Assembly (NCBI GenBank): GCA_011364965.1
Contig: RDOB01000003.1
Location: 528,939-592,938, forward strand
Direction of reading: 5' to 3'
DNA length: 64,000 nucleotides
DNA from: Candidatus Heimdallarchaeota archaeon
Lineage (GTDB): Archaea; Asgardarchaeota; Heimdallarchaeia; Hodarchaeales; Hodarchaeaceae
The position numbers were made by a program, and so were the translations under genes. Positions 34,640-54,204 of this stretch are shown piece after piece. The number at the start of each line of letters is the position of its first letter. Positions within the stretch are counted from its first letter, which is position 1. Below the pieces are notes generated by a model. The model saw only the letters and a list, made by a program, of their open reading frames with translations, searched no databases and was not told the origin of the DNA.

Positions 34640-36052
34640 ATGAAAAAATCTATTTGTATTCTCATTTTCGGTATTTTGGCAAGTTTTGGACTTTTATTAC
34701 ATTCTCCTACCACTATTAAAGCTACATTGCCATTAGAACATAATACAGGTTGGCAATGGGAAATTAATACTAATGATACGCTTATTTACAAAATTGTAGA
34801 TAATGTATTAGGAGCTCGTTATGAAGCCTATAATATTACTGGTGAACCTTGGGTTGCTTCTGGGGTCTTAGATGTTATAAATATAACTAAATTAATATTT
34901 AATCCTATAACTGGAACTGTTGAAAACTCAGAAGAGTTATTCCAATGTGTCGCAAGTCTGAGTCCAGGATTTTGGCAGCTTTCGTTTTACGATGCTGGAG
35001 TGAATACTGGTGGTTTTACTATGGCTTTCCCACTAATCCCTGTGAACACAAGCGGTTTGATAAATCAAACCCAGTTAGATGATTGGGGTGCAGCTATGAC
35101 AAACGATCTTGGAGGAACTACTTATGCGAGAGCTTTACAGTTACAAGAATATACTGTGGTAGGTGATAACGAACTTCAACTTTACAATTCGACTTATGGC
35201 TACTATGTCAATATGACTTATAATGACAATGGAATCCTTGAAACCGCGTGTGTAAAGATTGAATTAGAAATGGGTGGACCATTTATTCTAGAACAAACTA
35301 TAACAAAAGAAATTGGGGACATAATTAGTCTATTAAACCCAATAGATGAAACATCTCTTGCTGTAGAGGTTGGAGATAGTCTAATTTATCAATTTTATAT
35401 GAATGGAGTTCCCCAAGCGTTTCAAAGTTACAATATCACATATGTTGGGAAAATCACAGTTGACTATCAAGGTCAAGATAAATTATTTTGGGGAGCTAAT
35501 GCGACCCGATACAATTACGATACGCCCAGCGATACTTGGATATTGGATACAGAATGGCCTGAACAAACGATTGGCGGCGGAGATGATAATTATCTCCTTC
35601 TACGGATGGAGGGGCCAACAAATCTAGTCCATCCTGAAGGAACAAATGGATCAATTCTAGAAATGAATTTAGCGCCGATATATGGATCAGTGTATGGCGG
35701 ATATTTGGATATATGCGAAAAGGGTGACTGGTGGGTAAAATTCTCTAATACAACTACTGATCAATGGATACGAATAGAACTTGAACCAGAAACGGGTCTT
35801 TTACTGAATGTGACATTCACTCAAGGAGCTGATATAATAACAGAATATCTGATTGATGAAGATGATTTTCCACCCTCATCCTCGACGACAACTACAACAA
35901 CAACCACAACTACGACTACCTCTACAACTACAACCTCTCAAATGTCCAGTACAACTGAAACAACACCAGCTGTAACCTCCTTCCCAGGAGTAACAAGTAT
36001 TTTTCTAGCTATTGGAACTCTCATATTAGTGTTCAGAAGACAAAAGAAATAG
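34640..36052 (+). CDS. Cell-surface glycoprotein with Thr stalk and SFPG-TM-basic anchor
   Basis: Signal peptide, two related internal domains (DTLIY / DSLIY...YNIT), poly-Thr stretch, FRRQKK tail. Confidence 0.85.
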   Translation: MKKSICILIFGILASFGLLLHSPTTIKATLPLEHNTGWQWEINTNDTLIYKIVDNVLGARYEAYNITGEPWVASGVLDVINITKLIFNPITGTVENSEELFQCVASLSPGFWQLSFYDAGVNTGGFTMAFPLIPVNTSGLINQTQLDDWGAAMTNDLGGTTYARALQLQEYTVVGDNELQLYNSTYGYYVNMTYNDNGILETACVKIELEMGGPFILEQTITKEIGDIISLLNPIDETSLAVEVGDSLIYQFYMNGVPQAFQSYNITYVGKITVDYQGQDKLFWGANATRYNYDTPSDTWILDTEWPEQTIGGGDDNYLLLRMEGPTNLVHPEGTNGSILEMNLAPIYGSVYGGYLDICEKGDWWVKFSNTTTDQWIRIELEPETGLLLNVTFTQGADIITEYLIDEDDFPPSSSTTTTTTTTTTTTSTTTTSQMSSTTETTPAVTSFPGVTSIFLAIGTLILVFRRQKK

Positions 36053-36069
36053 TTATTTTTTCTTTTTTC
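36011..36069 (+). repeat. 59 bp direct repeat, copy 1 (gene 3' end plus oligo-T terminator)
   Basis: 56/59 identical to 43710-43768. Confidence 0.9.
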
Positions 36070-36298
36070 TTTTTTTTTGTATTCGATCTAATCAATATCC
36101 TCTTCATCACTCAATTCTTTTATCAAATGATCAAAATCAATTGGTCTAGGGTAAATTTTTTCCATTTCCAATTGAATTTTTGATAAATAGACATAATTCA
36201 GTTTGATCATGGATTAAAAAAGTGATCTCGTATGACTTGGGGGTAGATTTTGGCTTCCTTTCTTACCAATACAATTTGTTTGTTATGAACTAGTAGAA

Positions 36299-37398: not shown

Positions 37399-38913
37399 TT
37401 GAGATTAATGATCAACTCAGTGAAATCAGTAAATGAGGGAAAAATTGATTATACAACTGAAGTTGAGAGTCAGTTCATACAAGATTTCATTGTTTACTGG
37501 GAAGCAGTACGTAGTGCCATTTCTCATTATAAAAAGCTGGTAAGCAATCAAAAGGTCTCATTAGATCTTGTCAAAATCATTAGAAAAACCTGTGAAGATT
37601 TATTTTTATCGTGTACTCAACCTTTTTTCGAGAAATGGTGTAAAGTGTTCCCTTTCATTCAAAAGGATTCTGGATTCCTTTCCCTCTATTGGTCTTATGA
37701 GATTTCATTTAATAACTTTTCTTATCTCCTTCCCCATAAATTGGTTGTCTTTGAGCTATTTAAATGTGATAATGCGTGCATTCAAAATCTAAAACGCATT
37801 AAAAAACTCGAAGATCTACTTTTCTATTTAACTCGAACGTTCTGCGATTTGAACCTGAATTTAAACTCTAATGATAAAAAAATTCTCAATTATTTTACGT
37901 CTAAGGACTTTGTCTGCTCTTATAAAAGGTTTCCTACGCAAAAAAGGATTTCCGATGCCTTACGTATAAGCGAGGCAACCTATAATCGACGGGAGTCGAT
38001 TTTAGCTGAAACTTATGTTTTTAGTGCCATTTACCGTTTGAATATTAGCGCTCTAGGGTTTGAGACCTTATTTGTTTGTTCTCCCTTTGTGGTTGATAAT
38101 GCCTTTCTAACTCCGTCATCGTTAGCTTCAGTCCCCTATCGCGTGACCGATACCATTGGGGCTCAAAAGATCATTCAATATCAAGTTACGGATTATAATC
38201 TTTTCCAAAAGATCACAAGTTTGTATCAAGACAAAAATTCCCATATGACTAGACTTACAAATGGATATATCGGATGGAATCTACACTCTTTTCACCATAA
38301 TTCTTCTAAACGGTGGAAAGTGCTTCCTCCTATCCTATCTACTTACAATTGGGATGATGGCGTTATTAGCGAGGAAAAAGGATTCCATTACAATTTAATT
38401 CCCCAATCTTTAGCTCCTCATTTAACTGAGGTGGAGAGAGAGATACTAGCCCATTTTTCTAAATATGGTACCCGCTATGATGTTAATTTGGCTAAAAAAT
38501 TTGGGAAAACAGAAAAATATATCCGTAGATCGTGGAGTAGACTTCTATCTGAAAAATTAGTTCACCGTTTTCCTCTCTTTTCGAATATTGGATTAGACGC
38601 TAAACCCTGGATAACTCTTTTTGGCAGAAAGAATGGTGATTATAATAAGCAAAACAGTCTAATCCTCCGTATAGTTGAGCATCTAAAACTCCTACCCTTC
38701 ACTTTTATTTTTTATAAGTTAGCAGAGAGTTCAAAGGGTGATCCTCCTCTTCTTGCTGGTTTAATCTATATTCCAAGTTTTTGGATGACTGAATTCAATA
38801 TTAAATGGAATAAATTAGCTGAATTTGGCTTTCTACCCGAAATTGAATATTCCTACAATCGGTATATTCGTTGGAATATTGATATCACGAAGGTTTCATT
38901 CGGAGCTGTTTAA
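37399..38913 (+). CDS. Large regulator-like protein with two Lrp/AsnC-like winged-helix modules
   Basis: LNSNDKKIL...TQKRISDALRISEATYNRR...NISALG and LTEVEREIL...LAKKFGKTEKYIRRSWSRL...NIGL. Confidence 0.65.
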   Translation: MRLMINSVKSVNEGKIDYTTEVESQFIQDFIVYWEAVRSAISHYKKLVSNQKVSLDLVKIIRKTCEDLFLSCTQPFFEKWCKVFPFIQKDSGFLSLYWSYEISFNNFSYLLPHKLVVFELFKCDNACIQNLKRIKKLEDLLFYLTRTFCDLNLNLNSNDKKILNYFTSKDFVCSYKRFPTQKRISDALRISEATYNRRESILAETYVFSAIYRLNISALGFETLFVCSPFVVDNAFLTPSSLASVPYRVTDTIGAQKIIQYQVTDYNLFQKITSLYQDKNSHMTRLTNGYIGWNLHSFHHNSSKRWKVLPPILSTYNWDDGVISEEKGFHYNLIPQSLAPHLTEVEREILAHFSKYGTRYDVNLAKKFGKTEKYIRRSWSRLLSEKLVHRFPLFSNIGLDAKPWITLFGRKNGDYNKQNSLILRIVEHLKLLPFTFIFYKLAESSKGDPPLLAGLIYIPSFWMTEFNIKWNKLAEFGFLPEIEYSYNRYIRWNIDITKVSFGAV

Positions 38914-39538
38914 AGCGCTGTTGAACAGCGATCTGTATAGATAATATTTGAAAAGCCATTGAAATGTTCTCCCCTGTCCGTGCACTCGTTTCAATTAGAT
39001 GGATTCCGAAACCATAGTTTTCTCGACTTTTTTTATCATATTTTCTAGTTAAATATTCAGCATATTGTCTTGGTACGAGGTTCAATCCACTTTCTTTAAG
39101 ATCTATCTTATTTGCAACTAATATTAAGGGGATTGGTCCTTTCATATTATGTTCCCATAGTTCTCCTATCCAGTTCTCTAAGTTCTTAAAGGAGTCTCTA
39201 TTGGTAATATCATAGATGAGCAATGCGCCATTGGTACCCTTATAAAATGTCTGTCGTACCTCAGAAAAATGTGGTTGCCCTGCTAAATCCCATATCTGAT
39301 ATTTAATTTCCCTAGATCCCAAGTTTACCACATATGTTGAAAAATCTGCTCCTATTGTTGCTGAATAAACGGGATTAAATCCGTGACCAATGAACCGTCG
39401 TCTTATCGAGGTTTTTCCCACAGCTCCATTTCCGATAAGGACTATTTTCCATAATGTCCTAGAGTCCTTTGGAAAAAGGAATTCGACATCCAAATCAGTT
39501 TCAAAATCTGATGGTAAATTAGTAGTAACCCCGTTCAA
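38885..39538 (-). CDS. Rab-like small GTPase (possible upstream ACG start at 39592)
   Basis: GNGAVGKT, TIGADF, IWDLAGQ, FYKG, YDIT, NKID, ETSA. Confidence 0.93.
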   Translation of the reverse strand: MNGVTTNLPSDFETDLDVEFLFPKDSRTLWKIVLIGNGAVGKTSIRRRFIGHGFNPVYSATIGADFSTYVVNLGSREIKYQIWDLAGQPHFSEVRQTFYKGTNGALLIYDITNRDSFKNLENWIGELWEHNMKGPIPLILVANKIDLKESGLNLVPRQYAEYLTRKYDKKSRENYGFGIHLIETSARTGENISMAFQILSIQIAVQQRFKQLRMKPS

Positions 39539-39595
39539 TAGTTCTCTTAAATTATCGCGGAATTCAAATTCATTTTCATTCTTGTTGAACGTACT

Positions 39596-41119
39596 TTATC
39601 CTCCTTTAGAATTACCGTCTTGTGGATTCGTCTTCAGCTCTGGAAGAACAATAGAGAAAGTGGATCCTTTTTTATATTCACTCTCAACATAGATTGCTCC
39701 TTTATGGAGATACACTAATTCACGAGCTAGTGCTAATCCAATTCCTGTTCCTTGAATGTGTGAAACATCATCTGATCTATAAAACCTCGTAAAAATGTGT
39801 GGAATATCCTTTTTTGAGATTCCCATCCCCTGATCAGTAATTTCAATTAATGTTTCCTTATTCTCTTCTCCAGAAGAATATTTTCCCTTATAAGACTCGG
39901 TGACCTTAATAGTTATATTAGAGTTATTCGAAGAATACTTAATGGCATTATCAAGTATGATTCGGAATATTTGTTCAATCCGATGAACATCTCCCATTAA
40001 TTCTACCTGTTCTGAGCCTAAGACTTGAACGTTAAGTTTTTTCTCATAAATTCGCGGTTCTAATTGAGCTATGACTGAATAAATAGTCCCCAAGATATGG
40101 TACTTTTCCCATTTCAATTTTAAGCCTTTCCCAGCGTCGAAACGGGATAATATTAGTAGGTCATCCACCTGCTGATTTAATATTGCTGCACTTCTCCCCA
40201 TAGAATTAATTATCTCGATTTTTTCCTCCTCTGTAAGCTTCGTTCCATACCTTTGAAGGTTTATTACTGATAAATTCAACGCAGAGATAGGAGTTCTAAG
40301 TTCATGGGAAACAACAGATACAAACTTCTTTCGGAGATTTTCAAACTCGATAAATGGAGTAATATCCCTAAATTCAATAATAGAAACAAGAGAATTCTGG
40401 TTTATGGAAGAATTTAACGCGACTGTAAATTCTAGAAAGAGATTTGATGTTACTTCAACTACAACCTTTTGGTTAATGTCGTAAGTTAAGAAAAGTGTTC
40501 TAATGGTGTCAAAAAAGGGGTGACCTGTACTAAGTACGAAATTCAATTCACATACTCTTATTTCTGATAAGATTCTTTTGATTAGTCTTTCTGCTGCTGT
40601 ATTGATGATAATAGCCTTTCCATCTTGATCTAATACAATTACTCCATCTTTTATATTATTAAGTATCAATTCAATCTGTTTTTTTTCTCGATTGACAATT
40701 TCGCTTTGTGATCTAAGATGATCAATTATTTCTTCTAAGTAATCGTGGCTTAAACCAATCTTATCTTCAAAATCTGTTGAGAATGAAATTTGCTTCAATA
40801 GAAGAAATATGGAATTTAAATTAATGTACTTTGTTTTGAAATAGAACGAGATAATCTCTCCATTGTTTCTCAAGCAGCGTAATACACCCGTATTATGCAT
40901 TTTTTCTGAATAAATTGGATATTTGTAAATATAGTCTAAGTCTAGGTTATAGATATATGCTGAAATATCTTTTCCAATCATCTCTTGTTCTGAATATTTT
41001 AATATATCTGTTAGATATATATTAACATATTGTATTTTATGCTCCTTGAGATAAATAATCCCCATATCTAAATTATTTAAGATTTCTTGAAATCCTTCTG
41101 AATTCACCGTTTGATTCAT
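39596..41119 (-). CDS. Cytoplasmic PAS-domain sensor histidine kinase
   Basis: Two PAS-like segments; SHELRTP (H272), DNAIKYS, DQGMG, FTRF, GTGIGL; no TM helix. Confidence 0.93.
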   Translation of the reverse strand: MNQTVNSEGFQEILNNLDMGIIYLKEHKIQYVNIYLTDILKYSEQEMIGKDISAYIYNLDLDYIYKYPIYSEKMHNTGVLRCLRNNGEIISFYFKTKYINLNSIFLLLKQISFSTDFEDKIGLSHDYLEEIIDHLRSQSEIVNREKKQIELILNNIKDGVIVLDQDGKAIIINTAAERLIKRILSEIRVCELNFVLSTGHPFFDTIRTLFLTYDINQKVVVEVTSNLFLEFTVALNSSINQNSLVSIIEFRDITPFIEFENLRKKFVSVVSHELRTPISALNLSVINLQRYGTKLTEEEKIEIINSMGRSAAILNQQVDDLLILSRFDAGKGLKLKWEKYHILGTIYSVIAQLEPRIYEKKLNVQVLGSEQVELMGDVHRIEQIFRIILDNAIKYSSNNSNITIKVTESYKGKYSSGEENKETLIEITDQGMGISKKDIPHIFTRFYRSDDVSHIQGTGIGLALARELVYLHKGAIYVESEYKKGSTFSIVLPELKTNPQDGNSKGG

Positions 41120-41131
41120 GTATAGTTCCCC

Positions 41132-42520
41132 CTAAAACCGGATTTCCCAGGTTGTGTGCCGTTCTTCTTTATTGATAATTTTAGGTGATTCAATATGAAA
41201 GGTCTTTAGGATTCCTTCCAAAAAACCAGTGAGTAAAACATCAGTTAATTCACTGGGGATACCCTCATTTTTCCAATCTTGAACAGTTAATTCAATTGAT
41301 TGGCTCCTACGATTCATTATAAATGATTTTGATGTTAATTTTAGAGGTTTCGCGTTCCAGTCACCCTTCAGATAATTTAACCAAGATTTTTGTAATAATA
41401 TAGCATATCCTGTTCCTAAAATACGTACTCCCTGTTGGATTGATGGGAGCATATTTGTAAAATCCTCCTGACTTGTTCCTAAAGTTGGTAGAATAGTAAA
41501 TTGGGGGAGAATTACCTGTTCAAAATAATCCAATAACTCATCATTTAATAATTTCTGAAGCATTACATCTGGGAGCGAAAAATAAATAGTTTGTAATAGA
41601 GCTATATTACTACTTTGGTCATTTACGCTTGTAAGGAAAAAAGTTGCGATTTTTAAATAATCTTTAAAGTGCTTTAACACTATTTGTATATTTTTATTTA
41701 ATTCAATTCGTTTTTCCGGATCATACTTGTGTAAAAAAATGGAAAGATTTACATTAGACTCATTTTCATTGCGTACCAATGACCATAGCTTATCTAAGTA
41801 GTCTAGGGCTGGTAAGAAGGAAACAGGATCCTGTATATCTACAACATAAATTAAGGTTGAGGTTTTTCCCCAATAAGTCATGTCTTTTAGATATTGACGT
41901 CGATAAAGTTCTTGTCCTCCAAAATCCAATATTAAGATATTCTCTTTTAGGAATTCTTCGAAATCTATGTGCTGAACAACTCCTATGGTTGGCTTAATTG
42001 TATGCAAACGATCTTTCGATTCCTTTTTAAAGAATAATTGAATCATAGACGTTTTTCCGGCTCTAGATAATCCTAGAAGAGCTATTCTTATGACAGGTTT
42101 TTTCATGGATTGAGAAAGCTGAAATTCTTGATTTTTTCGAGTTAATGGACTCAGAATTGGTAAAATTAGTTTTTCAAACATTTCAGATTCTGGAAAATAG
42201 CCTTTGTCTTGGTCTTTCAACAATTGAAATGTTTCTTTAGCAATTAAATCGAAGTATCTCTCTACTTCTTCGGTTTGTATTTTTTCTTTTAGAAATAAAT
42301 ATAATCCGAAGGTTCTATATGTCCTTACATAGATAATTAAGTCAGAAAACCTAATTTCTTGAATTGCACTTTGAATTACTGCCTCTGAAAAATTTTGTAT
42401 CGCAACCATAAATCCAGAGATCAGCTGAGGATCCTGTAAAGTATATTTTGAGCTTTCTTCAGAATAACTCCATACTTCTATCCCTGCATCCGTAGAGATA
42501 GCAAATCTTACAAACATCAT
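41132..42520 (-). CDS. Longin-like / Rag-like small GTPase / V4R(Bet3)-like multidomain protein
   Basis: N-terminal DPQLISGFMVAIQNF; GLSRAGKTS, PTIG, DFGGQ, HKYD, TSV; C-terminal LLTGFLEGIL. Confidence 0.82.
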   Translation of the reverse strand: MMFVRFAISTDAGIEVWSYSEESSKYTLQDPQLISGFMVAIQNFSEAVIQSAIQEIRFSDLIIYVRTYRTFGLYLFLKEKIQTEEVERYFDLIAKETFQLLKDQDKGYFPESEMFEKLILPILSPLTRKNQEFQLSQSMKKPVIRIALLGLSRAGKTSMIQLFFKKESKDRLHTIKPTIGVVQHIDFEEFLKENILILDFGGQELYRRQYLKDMTYWGKTSTLIYVVDIQDPVSFLPALDYLDKLWSLVRNENESNVNLSIFLHKYDPEKRIELNKNIQIVLKHFKDYLKIATFFLTSVNDQSSNIALLQTIYFSLPDVMLQKLLNDELLDYFEQVILPQFTILPTLGTSQEDFTNMLPSIQQGVRILGTGYAILLQKSWLNYLKGDWNAKPLKLTSKSFIMNRRSQSIELTVQDWKNEGIPSELTDVLLTGFLEGILKTFHIESPKIINKEERHTTWEIRF

Positions 42521-42529
42521 ACTTCCTTT

Positions 42530-43411
42530 CTATTGTGATTCAATGGTTAGAATATCTGATATTTTCTCCCAATATGAGGATATATTCCAATTCTTTCCAG
42601 TTTTTATCAGACCAGAGATGGTCTCAAGTATTTCTTTCACCCTTAAAGACATTAAATAATTAATTTTTGTTGCTAGAGTAACCAACATAAATTGTCTTTC
42701 TCCTCCTCTTACAGAATCATCAGGAATCGAATCAAAATAGAGATATCCATCTTTTTCAATATTATAGATTCTTAATAAAACACTCTGAGATTCATAATAT
42801 TTTGAATGTCCATAGATTGAGACTGTTGTTTGGAACAGTTGAACACCTATTTCCTCGAGGTCAAAATCATCAACTGTATTAGGATAGTAATTCTGAATTT
42901 TCGGGCCAAAATTTTCATCCCATAATACATAAAATAAAATTACATCATTTTTTTGCTGAATTTTATAATCATTCTTAATTTCAAGAGATTCTAAAACTGA
43001 ATTTCTGATTCTCTCACTCATTTTTCTGTATTTTAATCCTTTAGCTATTTTTCCTTTTATTGTTGCAAGTAGATCTTCCTCCTCAAATGGTTTTATTATA
43101 TAGTCATCTATCCCGAGAGTTTTAGCAAATCGAACGTCAGCAGGTGAACTTTTTGCAGTCAAGAAAATGAAAGGGATAAGGTTCCAATCTGGATTGTTAG
43201 AAACTTCTTGAAGAAAGTCATAACCATTCATCTCTGGCATCATGATATCGCTAAGGATTAAATCAGGGGGATTTGAGAGATTATCTAATATTTCTAAAGC
43301 TTCTTTTCCATTTGAGCCTGTATAAACTTTATATCCATTGCATGTCAGAAAAATCCTCATATTTAACATGATTTCTTGATTATCTTCAACAACAAGGATT
43401 GTATTTGACAA
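42530..43411 (-). CDS. Response regulator: receiver domain fused to a longin/uDENN-like domain
   Basis: VVED, SD55IMMP, LTAK, KPF; C-terminal WDENFGP and IPDDSVRGGERQF. Confidence 0.88.
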   Translation of the reverse strand: MSNTILVVEDNQEIMLNMRIFLTCNGYKVYTGSNGKEALEILDNLSNPPDLILSDIMMPEMNGYDFLQEVSNNPDWNLIPFIFLTAKSSPADVRFAKTLGIDDYIIKPFEEEDLLATIKGKIAKGLKYRKMSERIRNSVLESLEIKNDYKIQQKNDVILFYVLWDENFGPKIQNYYPNTVDDFDLEEIGVQLFQTTVSIYGHSKYYESQSVLLRIYNIEKDGYLYFDSIPDDSVRGGERQFMLVTLATKINYLMSLRVKEILETISGLIKTGKNWNISSYWEKISDILTIESQ

Positions 43412-43568
43412 AATTTAACCTTCTTTCCACTGTGAATTGATTATTGTAGAATGTTAAGGTCAAAATCCTCTACAACTGTTATTTATAGCTAATTCCTCAT
43501 TAAGAGAGAGGGAATTTTTTTCAAACAAGATTCTAAAAAAAATGAAACACTTAAGCTCCTAATGTGAA

Positions 43569-43655
43569 ATGGATTTTGGAAACACAATTATTATGGTAAC
43601 TCATTATCCTGTTGTTGTCAAAATTGGGGCAGTAGTTCTCGAAGTGCAGGATGAC
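43569..43655 (+). pseudogene. C-terminal remnant of a LolD-like ABC ATPase
   Basis: GNTIIMVTHYPVVVKIGAVVLEVQDD resembles the H-loop terminus TIIMVTHD...DG. Confidence 0.6.
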
Positions 43656-43709
43656 CCGAACATTGAAAATCCTCGTTTGGAACTTTTTGCTGCTTTTTGT
43701 AAACATTTC

Positions 43710-43768
43710 ATTGGAACTCTAATATTAGTTTTCAGAAGACAAAAGAAGTAGTTATTTTTTCTTTTTTC
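43710..43768 (+). repeat. 59 bp direct repeat, copy 2
   Basis: Encodes IGTLILVFRRQKK* plus T-tract, same as 36011-36069. Confidence 0.9.
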
Positions 43769-44108
43769 ATTATATGTTCAATTTATGTTGGTTATAGGTA
43801 ATACCCAGTAAACTAAAAATAACTCTAATATAGAACCTTCAATCCTAAACTACCTCAATAATTTCAAGAATTCTTTAAATAATCAAACTTTCTTAATTGA
43901 TAGAGTTAATCCATTATCTGTTAAAAAGATTAGGCCCCTTGGTTGGATTAGAAAAAATCCATCTATTCTTGTTAAATTATTTTGAAACATCAGAAATTAC
44001 GTCAAAAATGTAAAGATTGGATCTTGAACTAGGAAAAATACTTTTCATAAAATATAAAGCACAATTATAATTAATAAACTACAGAAAAATGATTGGTGGA
44101 GAGCTGTC

Positions 44109-51628: not shown

Positions 51629-53002
51629 TTGAACGTATTTCTTCTATTATATTTCTCTTTCAGCAGTCCATCAGTTATTACTCGCTGGACTGGTAGTAGT
51701 TATTTCTTGATAGTTCTGGTATTAGGGATTGTATTTACTTTAATTGGCCTTGTTATTCTCATTAAACCTAATTTAGTGGATCAAATGCATCTTTGGTTTT
51801 TCTGGGGAATTAATATTGTATTTTTAGCCTCTTTAGTCTACACAATCCTTTTGAATCAAGTATTTTTCCCTAGCTCACCCACTAGCTATCCATTTACTGC
51901 ACCCTCAACAGCCATCATTCAGGACATTACTCTATTAATTTTTTTATTAACCAGTCCAATTCTGATTATCGATTTTATTTACTTTTCAAGGCAATTAATT
52001 GTGGAAACCCCTTCATTTAGACAAATAAGTGGAAGCTTCACGATAGCTGCATTTTTTTTCCTATTAATGATCTTTGCGCACATATTTACAACTGTTTACG
52101 ACTATATTCCTGAAATTGGACCCCTTTTCAGAGACCAATTCTGGTTTGTCCATTTGGTAGTAGCCATAGGGATTATGGTCCCAATTCTCCAATTAAAAAG
52201 TAAAATGGATCTTAACCTCAAACCTATCTCAAAACCTCTACCAAAGCTCTCTATAACCATCATTCTCTTATTAATCCTCACTTTGGGGTTAGTAATTACT
52301 TCACCATATCCACCACTTCCAGAGGATAAATCTTCTCTAAAAATCATAACATATAATATTCGACAAGGATATAGTCTATCGGGAGTAAAAAACTTAGATG
52401 GTCAATTAGCAATTCTAAAAGAAGTAGACGCAGATATCATTGGCTTGCAAGAATCAGATTCAGCCCGGATATCAGGGGGAAATTGTGATCCAGTTCGATA
52501 TTTCGCTAATCACCTTCATATGCACTCCTATTACGGGCCAAAATCAGTCACAGGGACATTTGGGATTGCCCTCCTTTCAAAAAACCCCATCAAAACTGCA
52601 AGAACTTTTTTCATGTACAGTATTGGCGAGCAAACCGCTTGTATCCATGCGTAAATTAAAGTTAGCACAAAAGGTTTTAATGTCTTTGTAACGCATCTTG
52701 GAAACGGAAGGCCTATTATTCAACAAGAAAATGTCTTAAAAGAAGTTAGTGGTAAGAATAATGTCATATTAATGGGTGATTTTAACTTTAGACCATACTC
52801 TACTCAATATAATCTAACGACCGCTATTCTTAATGATTCATGGACTTTGAAATGGCCATCATGGATTGATGATCAAAATTATAACGGTAGTCGCGAGATA
52901 GATCATATCTTTGTATCATTTGGAACAATAATTATTAACACACGGATTATTGAAAGCAGTGCATCAGATCATCCAGCAGTTTGGGCCGAAATAACGATCT
53001 GA
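51629..53002 (+). pseudogene. Membrane EEP-fold protein (Cwh43/PGAP2IP-like) with in-frame TAA at 52652-52654
   Basis: TYNI, GLQESD...GNCD, ALLSK, then in the same frame VTHL, MGDFN, IDHIF, SDH. Confidence 0.82.
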
Positions 53003-53007
53003 ACTCC

Positions 53008-54204
53008 TTACTTTAGGATCTTTCTTTTTCTCCCAAGATAAGCTCTGAAAATACCTACCACGACGAACATAGACAGGAGTTCTCTCAACGTCAAGAAGTC
53101 TGTAGATTCTATATCGATTGTAGAAGTACTGCTTGTAGCAGTACTGGTTGTATTCGAGGAAACTTGGGTGTTTCTTAATATCCAGGAGTTATTAGATGGA
53201 TGATAAATCCACAGATCGCCGAGGGTGGCTACACTATTTTCAGTACTCAGATAACCACCAAATAAAATTCCTTTATGGTTTATCGAGTCATAAACAAATG
53301 TTGCACATGTTCTTGGGGATGGAGATACACTCAAACTTAAAATCTCCCATGTATTGGTATTATAATCATAAAGCCAGGTTTCGCTTAACAGGTTTCCGCC
53401 AAATCCTCCAAAAAGGATTCCTTTGTCATTGATGGGATCATAGATCATAGAATGCAAATAGCGGGAACCAGGAGGGGAGGTTGGGTTTAACTCATTCCAT
53501 GAATTGGTAGTATAGTCATATTCCCAAGTATCATCCCTATATCCTTCAGCGCTATTTCCTCCAAACAGAATAATTTTCTGATTAGTAGAATCATACACCA
53601 TAGTATGCCCATATCGGGCTTCAGGTTTTATAGAGGGATTAAGTTCGGTCCAGATATTTGTAACTGGATCATAAGCCCAGAATTCATCATTAATTTTCTC
53701 ATTTAATCCCCCAAAGAGAATTACTTTTTGATTGACTGGGTCAAAAACCATAGCATGATTATATAATGAAGGGGGAGAAGTTCCAGTTGATTTTAGAGTC
53801 CAAGTATTACTGGGAAATTTAAAGACCCAGGTTTCCGTAGGGCCCCCTCCAAATAGAATTGTTTGGTTTGCAGTAGAATCATATACCATAGCATGCGAAT
53901 CTCTGGCTGAAGGGTGAGTGGTTGGAGCTAGATCCGTCCAGAGGTTGTCGTTATAATTATAAGCCCAAGTATCATCTAAATGTTGGAATCCTGATGTTAA
54001 CGTATCCCAACTACCACCAAATAAAATAGTTTGTTGATTGGTAGAATCAAAGACCATTGCATGCATTGTTCTGTCACGAGGAGAAGTACCTTGGACGATT
54101 TCAGCGGTAGTATCACTTAAATCAGCTCTAACAGTATAAAATACAAGATTTATAACAATTAAAAGAATAAAGACCTCTCCAAAGTTTTTGGGCTTCGCTC
54201 TCAA
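53008..54204 (-). CDS. Kelch-repeat surface protein with C-terminal anchor
   Basis: Six HxMVYD...ILFGG...TW repeats, Ser/Thr linker, TM helix and RKRK tail. Confidence 0.9.
   Translation of the reverse strand: MRAKPKNFGEVFILLIVINLVFYTVRADLSDTTAEIVQGTSPRDRTMHAMVFDSTNQQTILFGGSWDTLTSGFQHLDDTWAYNYNDNLWTDLAPTTHPSARDSHAMVYDSTANQTILFGGGPTETWVFKFPSNTWTLKSTGTSPPSLYNHAMVFDPVNQKVILFGGLNEKINDEFWAYDPVTNIWTELNPSIKPEARYGHTMVYDSTNQKIILFGGNSAEGYRDDTWEYDYTTNSWNELNPTSPPGSRYLHSMIYDPINDKGILFGGFGGNLLSETWLYDYNTNTWEILSLSVSPSPRTCATFVYDSINHKGILFGGYLSTENSVATLGDLWIYHPSNNSWILRNTQVSSNTTSTATSSTSTIDIESTDFLTLRELLSMFVVVGIFRAYLGRKRKILK

Follow-up and report, generated by a model that had tools for sequence, protein, structure and literature searches.

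In eukaryotes, longin proteins act as GTPase-activating proteins (GAPs) on Rag and Arf GTPases (PMC12290439). The complexes in question are FLCN-FNIP, directed at RagC/D, GATOR1 with its NPRL2-NPRL3 pair, directed at RagA/B, and C9orf72-SMCR8, directed at Arf. FLCN, NPRL2, SMCR8 and C9orf72 share a signature, consisting of a GP motif before strand 2 and an arginine finger, which is absent from the longins of TRAPP and DENND and is also found in one class of Asgard longins (PMC12290439). Here, we describe a four-gene operon at 38885-43411 of a 64,000-nucleotide (nt) stretch of DNA from Candidatus Heimdallarchaeota archaeon (Hodarchaeales; assembly GCA_011364965.1, contig RDOB01000003.1, positions 528,939 to 592,938 of the forward strand), which we refer to as the window. 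The operon encodes a histidine kinase, a response regulator with a predicted longin output, a longin-containing Rag-like GTPase and a Rab-like GTPase. We favour, with moderate confidence, the view that the four genes constitute one cytoplasmic signalling module, in which His-Asp phosphotransfer would control a longin GAP acting on the Rag-like GTPase.

An NPRL2-like longin fused to two-component domains has been described in Asgard archaea by Liu et al. (bioRxiv 10.1101/2020.10.19.343400, Fig. 5c), who proposed that Asgard growth control is centred on two-component systems with 'eukaryotic' regulators. In the same study, most eukaryotic-signature genes lay outside conserved neighbourhoods, and no fixed GTPase partner was named (bioRxiv 10.1101/2020.10.19.343400). 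In MK-D1, a longin-GTPase-roadblock architecture has been reported, the C-terminal domain of which was called roadblock, and GTPase genes are generally not found in operons with regulators (Tran et al. 2024, PMC10933270). Crystal structures are available for the Asgard Rag-like proteins LokiRagO (8yl2) and LokiRagM (8zla/9m28).

Bacterial links between two-component systems and small GTPases have been reviewed by Wuichet and Søgaard-Andersen (PMC4316618). They include Frz/RomR-MglA-MglB of Myxococcus and the conservon, with its CvnA kinase, CvnB roadblock protein and CvnD GTPase (PMC4316618, PMC3441718). As in the operon described here, His-Asp parts are combined with a Ras-superfamily GTPase and a regulator of the roadblock/longin superfamily. 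However, MglB and CvnB belong to the roadblock proteins, not to the FLCN-type longins, a response regulator is missing from the conservon, the bacterial GTPases are MglA-type rather than Rag- or Rab-like, and a fusion of receiver and regulator is not known from either system. The operon falls outside this group, as it has no adjacent roadblock gene and its GTPases are Rag- and Rab-like; no Robl_LC7 match was found among the four operon proteins by Pfam, or by hhalign for the C-terminal domain of the Rag-like protein.

The four genes, with the evidence by which each was assigned, are as follows (ORF, open reading frame; REC, receiver domain; AF2, AlphaFold2; aa, amino acids).

42530-43411, minus strand: P0001, REC-longin response regulator, 293 aa (ORF with TTG start; Pfam)
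41132-42520, minus strand: P0002, longin, Rag-like GTPase and C-terminal domain, 462 aa (ORF, Pfam, AF2)
39596-41119, minus strand: P0003, soluble PAS-(PAS)-HisKA-HATPase_c histidine kinase, 507 aa (ORF, Pfam, NCBIfam)
38885-39538, minus strand: P0004, Rab-like small GTPase, 217 aa from the first canonical start, a TTG (ORF, Pfam)

Successive genes are separated by 9, 12 and 57 nt, which bears out the co-oriented, tightly packed set that an earlier note on this DNA had recognised from the sequence. All four proteins are predicted to be soluble, because no 19-residue window in any of them exceeds a Kyte-Doolittle mean of 1.2.

The output domain of the response regulator is central to our argument. 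Its position and motifs are listed below.

42548-42940, minus strand: predicted FLCN/NPRL2/SMCR8-type longin, P0001 residues 158-288 (AF2, motifs, hhalign)
42902-42922, minus strand: WD-x3-GP motif
42707-42709, minus strand: codon of R235, the candidate arginine finger

The AF2 model of P0001, built on the family alignment, has a mean pLDDT (predicted local distance difference test) of 84.6, and most of the longin part lies between 85 and 96. In the models, residues 158-288 of P0001 and residues 3-126 of P0002 both follow the strand-strand-helix-strand-strand-strand-helix-helix order of a longin. Among 39 P0001 homologues, W164, G169, P170 and R235 are invariant and D165 is present in at least 90%. 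The GP pair of the W164-D165-x3-G169-P170 motif is placed by AF2 at the boundary of strands 1 and 2, at the start of strand 2, while R235 sits within VRGGxRQF in the loop between strands 4 and 5. The same WD-x3-GP spacing occurs in C9orf72 (W33-D34...G38-P39; PMC12290439).

Profile comparison points in the same direction. A 430-460-aa Asgard family reaches the curated cut-off of Pfam Folliculin in 14 of 21 related genomes, and the P0001 longin profile aligns with this family over 132 columns (hhalign probability 97%, E 7.8e-11). Both GP and RGxxR line up in this alignment, so that R235 meets the conserved xRGxxR of the Folliculin-positive family. Pfam Folliculin also gives a weak match in 8 of the 39 P0001 family members. 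From a weak Pfam Folliculin alignment, we take R235 to be the presumable counterpart of R164 in human FLCN. Feature searches of the ESM Atlas with the P0001 longin and the P0002 C-terminal domain scored 0.76-0.80 and serve as leads only; in one cluster near the queried domains, 19% of members carry NPR2. No match to PDB sequences was found with the P0001 longin profile at E up to 10, a search for NPR2 (PF06218) in 21 related genomes gave nothing useful, and the fold-search lists for the whole P0001 model were filled by REC matches.

Because of the invariant motifs and the profile homology, we file P0001 as an FLCN-type longin protein: judged by its sequence, the C-terminal domain is a longin of the FLCN/NPRL2/SMCR8 GAP type. 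The receiver-longin fusion that had been read from the ORF is thereby upheld in AF2 topology and motifs, as is a response regulator whose output is something other than DNA binding. The same note had regarded the longin as a generic scaffold for GAPs or guanine nucleotide exchange factors (GEFs). The GP motif and arginine narrow it to the GAP type and thus indicate GTPase inactivation.

The alternative that best withstands these data is that the REC-longin serves the neighbouring GTPases in a capacity other than that of a GAP, as exchange factor, scaffold or effector specific for one nucleotide state, and that phosphorylation controls recruitment or localisation, as around MglA in Myxococcus. 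Longin platforms are typically GEF cores, as in TRAPP, and in a fold search the N-terminal domain of P0002 matched a TRAPP longin subunit. In addition, the Myxococcus receiver protein RomR, together with RomX, has been interpreted as a GEF as well as an effector of MglA-GTP (PMC13408092, PMC4316618). We nevertheless consider this alternative improbable, since the combination of GP motif and arginine is specific to GAP longins (PMC12290439) and is invariant in the P0001 family. A TRAPP search (PF04051) of 21 related genomes returned no match, and its positive controls were unmatched too.

Longins related to that of P0001 are encoded elsewhere in the same genome. A 430-aa protein (G000:C12:26958-28283, locus L127) has an N-terminal longin at the Pfam Folliculin threshold (22.7-24 bits), and its relatives reach 31 bits. 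A Robl_LC7 gene (C12:28825-29085) adjoins it, and the pair resembles the roadblock, Rab and DENN/FLCN-like operon of Liu et al. A 639-aa protein (G000:C9:188928-190874; L126:426-2345) combines an N-terminal GP-type longin (profile E 2.7e-16) with TPR repeats, and orthologues of 645-655 aa occur throughout the genus.

The proposed input to the longin is a conventional two-component pair, with the following sites.

43058-43399, minus strand: REC domain, P0001 residues 5-118 (Pfam Response_reg, E 4.8e-26)
43247-43249, minus strand: codon of the phospho-acceptor D55 of P0001
40304-40306, minus strand: codon of H272 of P0003, in the H-box SHELRTP

Response_reg is the sole Pfam match above threshold in P0001. 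The receiver fold, the acidic pair (E9-D10), the phospho-acceptor aspartate (D55) and the conserved threonine and lysine (T85, K107) are all present. In P0003, Pfam identifies PAS (10-58), HisKA (263-330, E 3.4e-12) and HATPase_c (376-494, E 3.3e-26), and NCBIfam adds a PnpS/PhoR-like match over 117-493. The N, G1, F and G2 boxes are in place (NAIKY, DQGMG, FTRF and GTGIG). This agrees with the soluble PAS kinase first proposed, except that the second of its two PAS domains is weakly supported (residues 148-182, E 1e-3 to 3e-2). By these sequence features, P0003 and P0001 are predicted to be a competent His-Asp pair.

P0002, the putative client, is built from three parts.

42140-42520, minus strand: N-terminal longin, residues 1-127, without GP motif and arginine (AF2)
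41573-42100, minus strand: Rag-like GTPase domain, residues 141-316 (Pfam, motifs)
41135-41569, minus strand: C-terminal domain, residues 318-462, two long helices followed by strand-strand-helix-strand-strand (AF2)

Pfam recognises the G domain as Gtr1_RagA (146-305, E 2.2e-17) and Arf (E 1.7e-13), together covering about 141-306, and leaves flanks of roughly 130 and 150 residues free. The GTPase motifs comprise G1 (GLSRAGKT), G2 (T178), G3 (DFGGQ, with Q203) and G4 (HKYD); HKxD in place of NKxD is a Rag-type trait. By sequence and structure the G domain is closest to LokiRagM and LokiRagO, and by sequence also to RagC, with HKYD aligned to HKxD. Since eukaryotic longin GAPs target Rag and Arf GTPases, P0002 belongs to the right class of client.

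The flanking domains of P0002 were modelled by AF2 on the family alignment (mean pLDDT 78.6); 36 homologues have the same length. The N-terminal longin shares no detectable sequence kinship with that of P0001 (hhalign probability 2.8%). The whole-model fold-search lists are dominated by the G domain, and profiles of the N- and C-terminal domains gave only chance-level matches to PDB sequences. A complex prediction of P0002 residues 1-312 with GTP and the P0001 longin alignment yielded 0.21 and 0.09 against a mark of 0.32, and counts neither way.

The third domain had previously been called V4R-like. While the longin and the Rag-like GTPase of that description are supported by AF2 and by Pfam and HKYD, respectively, the V4R assignment is not: Pfam found no meaningful family in the C-terminal domain and no V4R match in 28 of 28 family members, and with a V4R profile made from relatives, hhalign reached a probability of <1%. 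The probability against Robl_LC7 was 0.1%, and conserved cysteines are absent from the C-terminal domain family. Foldseek alignments of P0002 with Rag proteins run through the C-terminal stretch (about 340-350 columns), and Gtr1/Gtr2 clusters of the Atlas align 214-227 residues over P0002 130-443. With four strands instead of the five of roadblock, the modelled domain may be Rag C-terminal/roadblock-like and lack the last strand, or may be V4R/Bet3-like, its topology being compatible with either. P0002 thus resembles the multidomain Asgard Rag-like GTPases of Tran et al. in that its G domain lies between a longin and a C-terminal domain. It differs from them in its four-stranded C-terminal domain without Robl_LC7 profile similarity, and from MK-D1 GTPase genes in sharing an operon with a regulator.

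Set against the eukaryotic longin GAPs, the operon has the GP motif before strand 2 and the conserved arginine, a motif-free second longin at hand in P0002, and a Rag/Arf-like GTPase as neighbour. In contrast, P0001 has neither a DENN nor an NPRL2-specific C-terminal domain, its putative catalytic longin is attached to a receiver, and the partner longin forms one protein with the GTPase. The input is a histidine kinase and not amino-acid sensors, there is no lysosome or TOR kinase context, and the GAP activity of P0001 is a prediction.

Conservation was assessed in 301 genomes of the phylum and in a neighbourhood set of 40 loci of ~16 kb around REC-longin genes, scanned with our own profiles. 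Full-length P0001 homologues with 45-78% identity occur across Asgard lineages; homologues of P0001 and P0002 carry the labels Hodarchaeales, Odin, Thor, Hel and Loki, and the nearest named relatives are Hodarchaeales. A longin attached to REC was found in 94 of the 301 genomes, including 20/20 in the same family and 60/68 in another large family. A synteny check, as suggested in the earlier note, found the gene combination conserved elsewhere. A kinase gene lies within 300 nt and on the same strand at 33/40 loci, a small GTPase gene within 4 kb on the same strand at 28/40, and the genes are mostly arranged as GTPase-kinase-REC-longin. Two metagenome contigs share the identical four-gene arrangement of REC-longin, longin-GTPase, kinase and Rab (60-72% identity), and related clusters occur in metagenome-assembled genomes (MAGs) labelled Odin and Thor. 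In Loki-type cassettes, the Rag-like GTPase stands alone, unfused.

Larger clusters occur on contigs of 71-78 kb, where two REC-longins and hybrid kinases accompany between two and four paralogues of P0002; this suggests heteromeric assemblies. Loci L001, L004 and L040 carry tandem REC-longin paralogues, hybrid REC-PAS kinases and two to four P0002-type paralogues.

Which of the two GTPases is the conserved partner was addressed with a FastTree phylogeny of 110 GTPase domains. Twenty-three cassette GTPases fall into a single clade (support 97), together with two that are encoded on the opposite strand. This clade adjoins the P0002-type G domains in a joint clade of 42 rows (support 99), and its placement points to the Rag-like GTPase as the conserved partner rather than to the Rab-like one. 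In the same tree, P0004 falls with Rab-like paralogues and with cassette GTPases of its own genus only. It was therefore rejected as the conserved client, as the cassette GTPases of other lineages group with the Rag-like domain of P0002.

P0004 itself is a Rab-like GTPase, as had been expected of the fourth gene: Pfam Ras matches at E 3.3e-41, the motifs G1 to G5 are present (among them G1 GNGAVGKT, G3 DLAGQ, G4 NKID and G5 SAR), and the protein is placed in the Rab-like half of the tree. A C-terminal prenylation cysteine is missing (the protein ends ...QQRFKQLRMKPS), so that P0004 is Rab-like but not a canonical eukaryotic Rab.

The position of P0004 leads to a second alternative, in which the wiring is reversed. 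P0004, and perhaps P0002, would control the kinase, and the REC-longin would relay the signal to another target, giving a GTPase-to-GTPase cascade via a phosphorelay. An Odin MAG (GCA_048885365.1, L003:3575-5320) encodes a 581-aa fusion in which a Ras-family domain (5-171) takes the sensor position ahead of HisKA (342-408) and HATPase_c (454-571); the surrounding cluster also encodes a small GTPase, a REC-longin and a homologue of P0002. The kinase and Rab genes of the window share one reading frame with a single TAA between them, and in an orthologue the Rab start overlaps the kinase stop. In actinobacterial conservons, which have no response regulator, the kinase works in a complex with the GTPase (PMC4316618). 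However, this is the only Ras-kinase fusion among the loci scanned, and P0004-type Rabs are cassette members in their own genus only. We judge reversed wiring to be less probable again than an exchange-factor role, and it could coexist with the GAP model rather than replace it.

Finally, the genes might be neighbours by chance. The source assembly (2.97 Mb, 16 contigs, 87% complete) contains 54-62 Ras-family ORFs, 6 kinase cores and 8 receivers, and 14% of its bases lie within 4 kb of a Ras-family ORF. The surplus of Ras-family ORFs over kinases and receivers, along with the labels carried by the homologues, marks the genome as that of an Asgard archaeon. That abundant Asgard GTPase genes merely came to lie beside an ordinary two-component pair is nevertheless very hard to credit, because a GTPase lies within 4 kb at 30/40 loci against the 14% background, the cassette GTPases fall into one clade instead of being spread over the tree, the other kinase genes of the genome are 11-150 kb from the nearest Ras-family ORF, and the Odin gene fusion exists. 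The other receiver genes are 12-83 kb from a Ras-family ORF, save one 306-aa REC ORF at 1.8 kb.

Taken together, we propose the following mechanism. The soluble PAS kinase P0003 would sense an intracellular cue and autophosphorylate on H272, and the phosphoryl group would move to D55 of P0001. Phosphorylation of D55 would alter how available the longin is, or its dimer state. From its place next to the GP loop, R235 would then be inserted as an arginine finger and stimulate GTP hydrolysis on the Rag-like domain of P0002. The N-terminal longin of P0002, in which GP motif and arginine are missing, is probably the non-catalytic partner, as FNIP is for FLCN or NPRL3 for NPRL2. P0004 would be an additional, lineage-specific member that serves as another client or feeds into the kinase. 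All biochemical steps, from phosphotransfer and binding to the GAP activity, the direction in which it works and the choice of client, we infer from homology and synteny; what we observed is the gene order, the domain identities, the intact catalytic motifs, the homology of the longin to a Folliculin-positive family, the synteny and the GTPase tree. It is, in our view, quite likely that the operon works as a module through which a two-component system is coupled to GTPase control. The specific function as a phospho-regulated GAP on P0002 we put forward tentatively, as a proposal that could well turn out otherwise. The most far-reaching version is that the operon is a prokaryotic forerunner of the folliculin/GATOR1-Rag axis, with an Asp-switched FLCN-type longin, an FNIP/NPRL3-like longin in cis with a Rag-like GTPase, and a Rab-like GTPase feeding the kinase in a Rab-to-Rag cascade through a His-Asp phosphorelay. 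We regard this version as unlikely, if worth stating.

Several observations weigh against the GAP model. Among characterised longin platforms, exchange factors such as TRAPP, Mon1-Ccz1 and DENN outnumber GAPs. The Pfam Folliculin match of P0001 itself is weak (E 0.18), and the assignment of its longin fold is based on AF2 topology, motifs and profile homology, not on structural superposition. P0002 retains its catalytic glutamine (Q203), so that a GAP is plausible but not required. Its C-terminal domain, of which the genome has one copy, is rare, occurring in 7/301 genomes. GTPase adjacency is found in 4 of 11 sampled genera from two families, and the locus counts are not independent because the loci are related. 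The GTPase in sensor position of the Odin fusion fits a GTPase upstream of the kinase.

The longin/two-component domain fusion is known already, and so is the general principle in bacteria. P0001 belongs to a class of fusion that is on record. The preprint describing that class reportedly appeared later in Nature (2021). The earlier note did not recognise the operon as a characterised system, which holds for its biochemistry but not for the fusion, published by Liu et al., nor for two-component/GTPase links as such, which are established in bacteria (PMC4316618). In the literature on Asgard small GTPases with a response regulator or histidine kinase, we found no paper describing a cassette with a fixed GTPase partner. 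What goes beyond Liu et al. is the conserved cassette of kinase, REC-longin and Rag-like GTPase; new, then, are the fixed Rag-like partner and the four-gene form with its longin-Rag fusion and Rab-like gene.

Which regulator serves which Asgard small GTPase is an open problem, and genome layout rarely pairs them (Tran et al. 2024). The cassette offers a defined set for direct assay, namely a kinase, a predicted phospho-switchable longin with a GAP signature and a Rag-like client. If the GAP model is true, the longin-GAP mechanism of folliculin, GATOR1 and C9orf72-SMCR8 would be older than eukaryotes and would have been coupled to bacterial-style sensing, which would bear on the origin of Rag/TOR-type nutrient signalling. 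On the forerunner version, longin-GAP control of Rag-type GTPases would first have been driven by two-component signalling. If the GAP model is false, the operon remains an annotated example of an already reported domain fusion.

The boundaries of two of the genes deserve comment. The public gene call for the response regulator, P0040 (279 aa), begins at M15 of P0001, 14 residues downstream of the TTG (window 43370-43411). A start at M15 would cost the receiver its strand 1 and the acidic pair E9-D10, and the upstream TTG is backed by homologues. A candidate promoter element lies ahead of it.

43480-43487, minus strand: possible archaeal TATA box TATAAATA, ~70 nt upstream of the P0001 start (sequence reading alone)

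It is possible that TATAAATA is the promoter element of P0001. At the other end of the operon, the kinase stop TAA (39596-39598) is in frame with the P0004 ORF, and 19 open codons lie between them (39539-39598). This stretch ahead of the P0004 TTG resembles the N-terminal extension of the orthologue at locus L077, the ATG of which overlaps the kinase stop. The coding region of P0004 therefore probably extends up to 39595, to judge from this likeness. ATG, GTG and TTG are absent from the 19 open codons, where only an ACG (39590-39592) follows a GGAGG. The true start of P0004 is thus uncertain, because the conserved upstream extension has no canonical start codon.

Downstream, a 504-aa ORF without Pfam match (37399-38913, plus strand) is convergent with the operon, with an overlap of 29 nt at the P0004 stop. 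Syntenic contigs have Pfam-less ORFs of 482-489 aa on the opposite strand downstream of the Rab gene, either directly after it (P0009 contig) or at ~1.4 kb (L077); the likeness is one of position.

A 62-nt direct repeat, 94% identical between its copies (36011-36072 and 43710-43771), flanks a 7.7-kb block that contains the operon and three further ORFs. Each copy consists of the last 13 codons (..IGTLILVFRRQKK stop) and the T-rich tail of a plus-strand ORF.

34640-36052, plus strand: ORF of 470 aa ending in a repeat copy
43569-43751, plus strand: ORF of 60 aa ending in a repeat copy

The repeat may be the trace of an insertion or of a duplication junction; no integrase was noticed. Further along the window, 51629-52654 encodes a membrane protein with PGAP2IP/Cwh43-type domains (the second transmembrane domain and an EEP nuclease-like domain) and 53008-54204 a multi-Kelch beta-propeller protein, both from families with a eukaryotic flavour.

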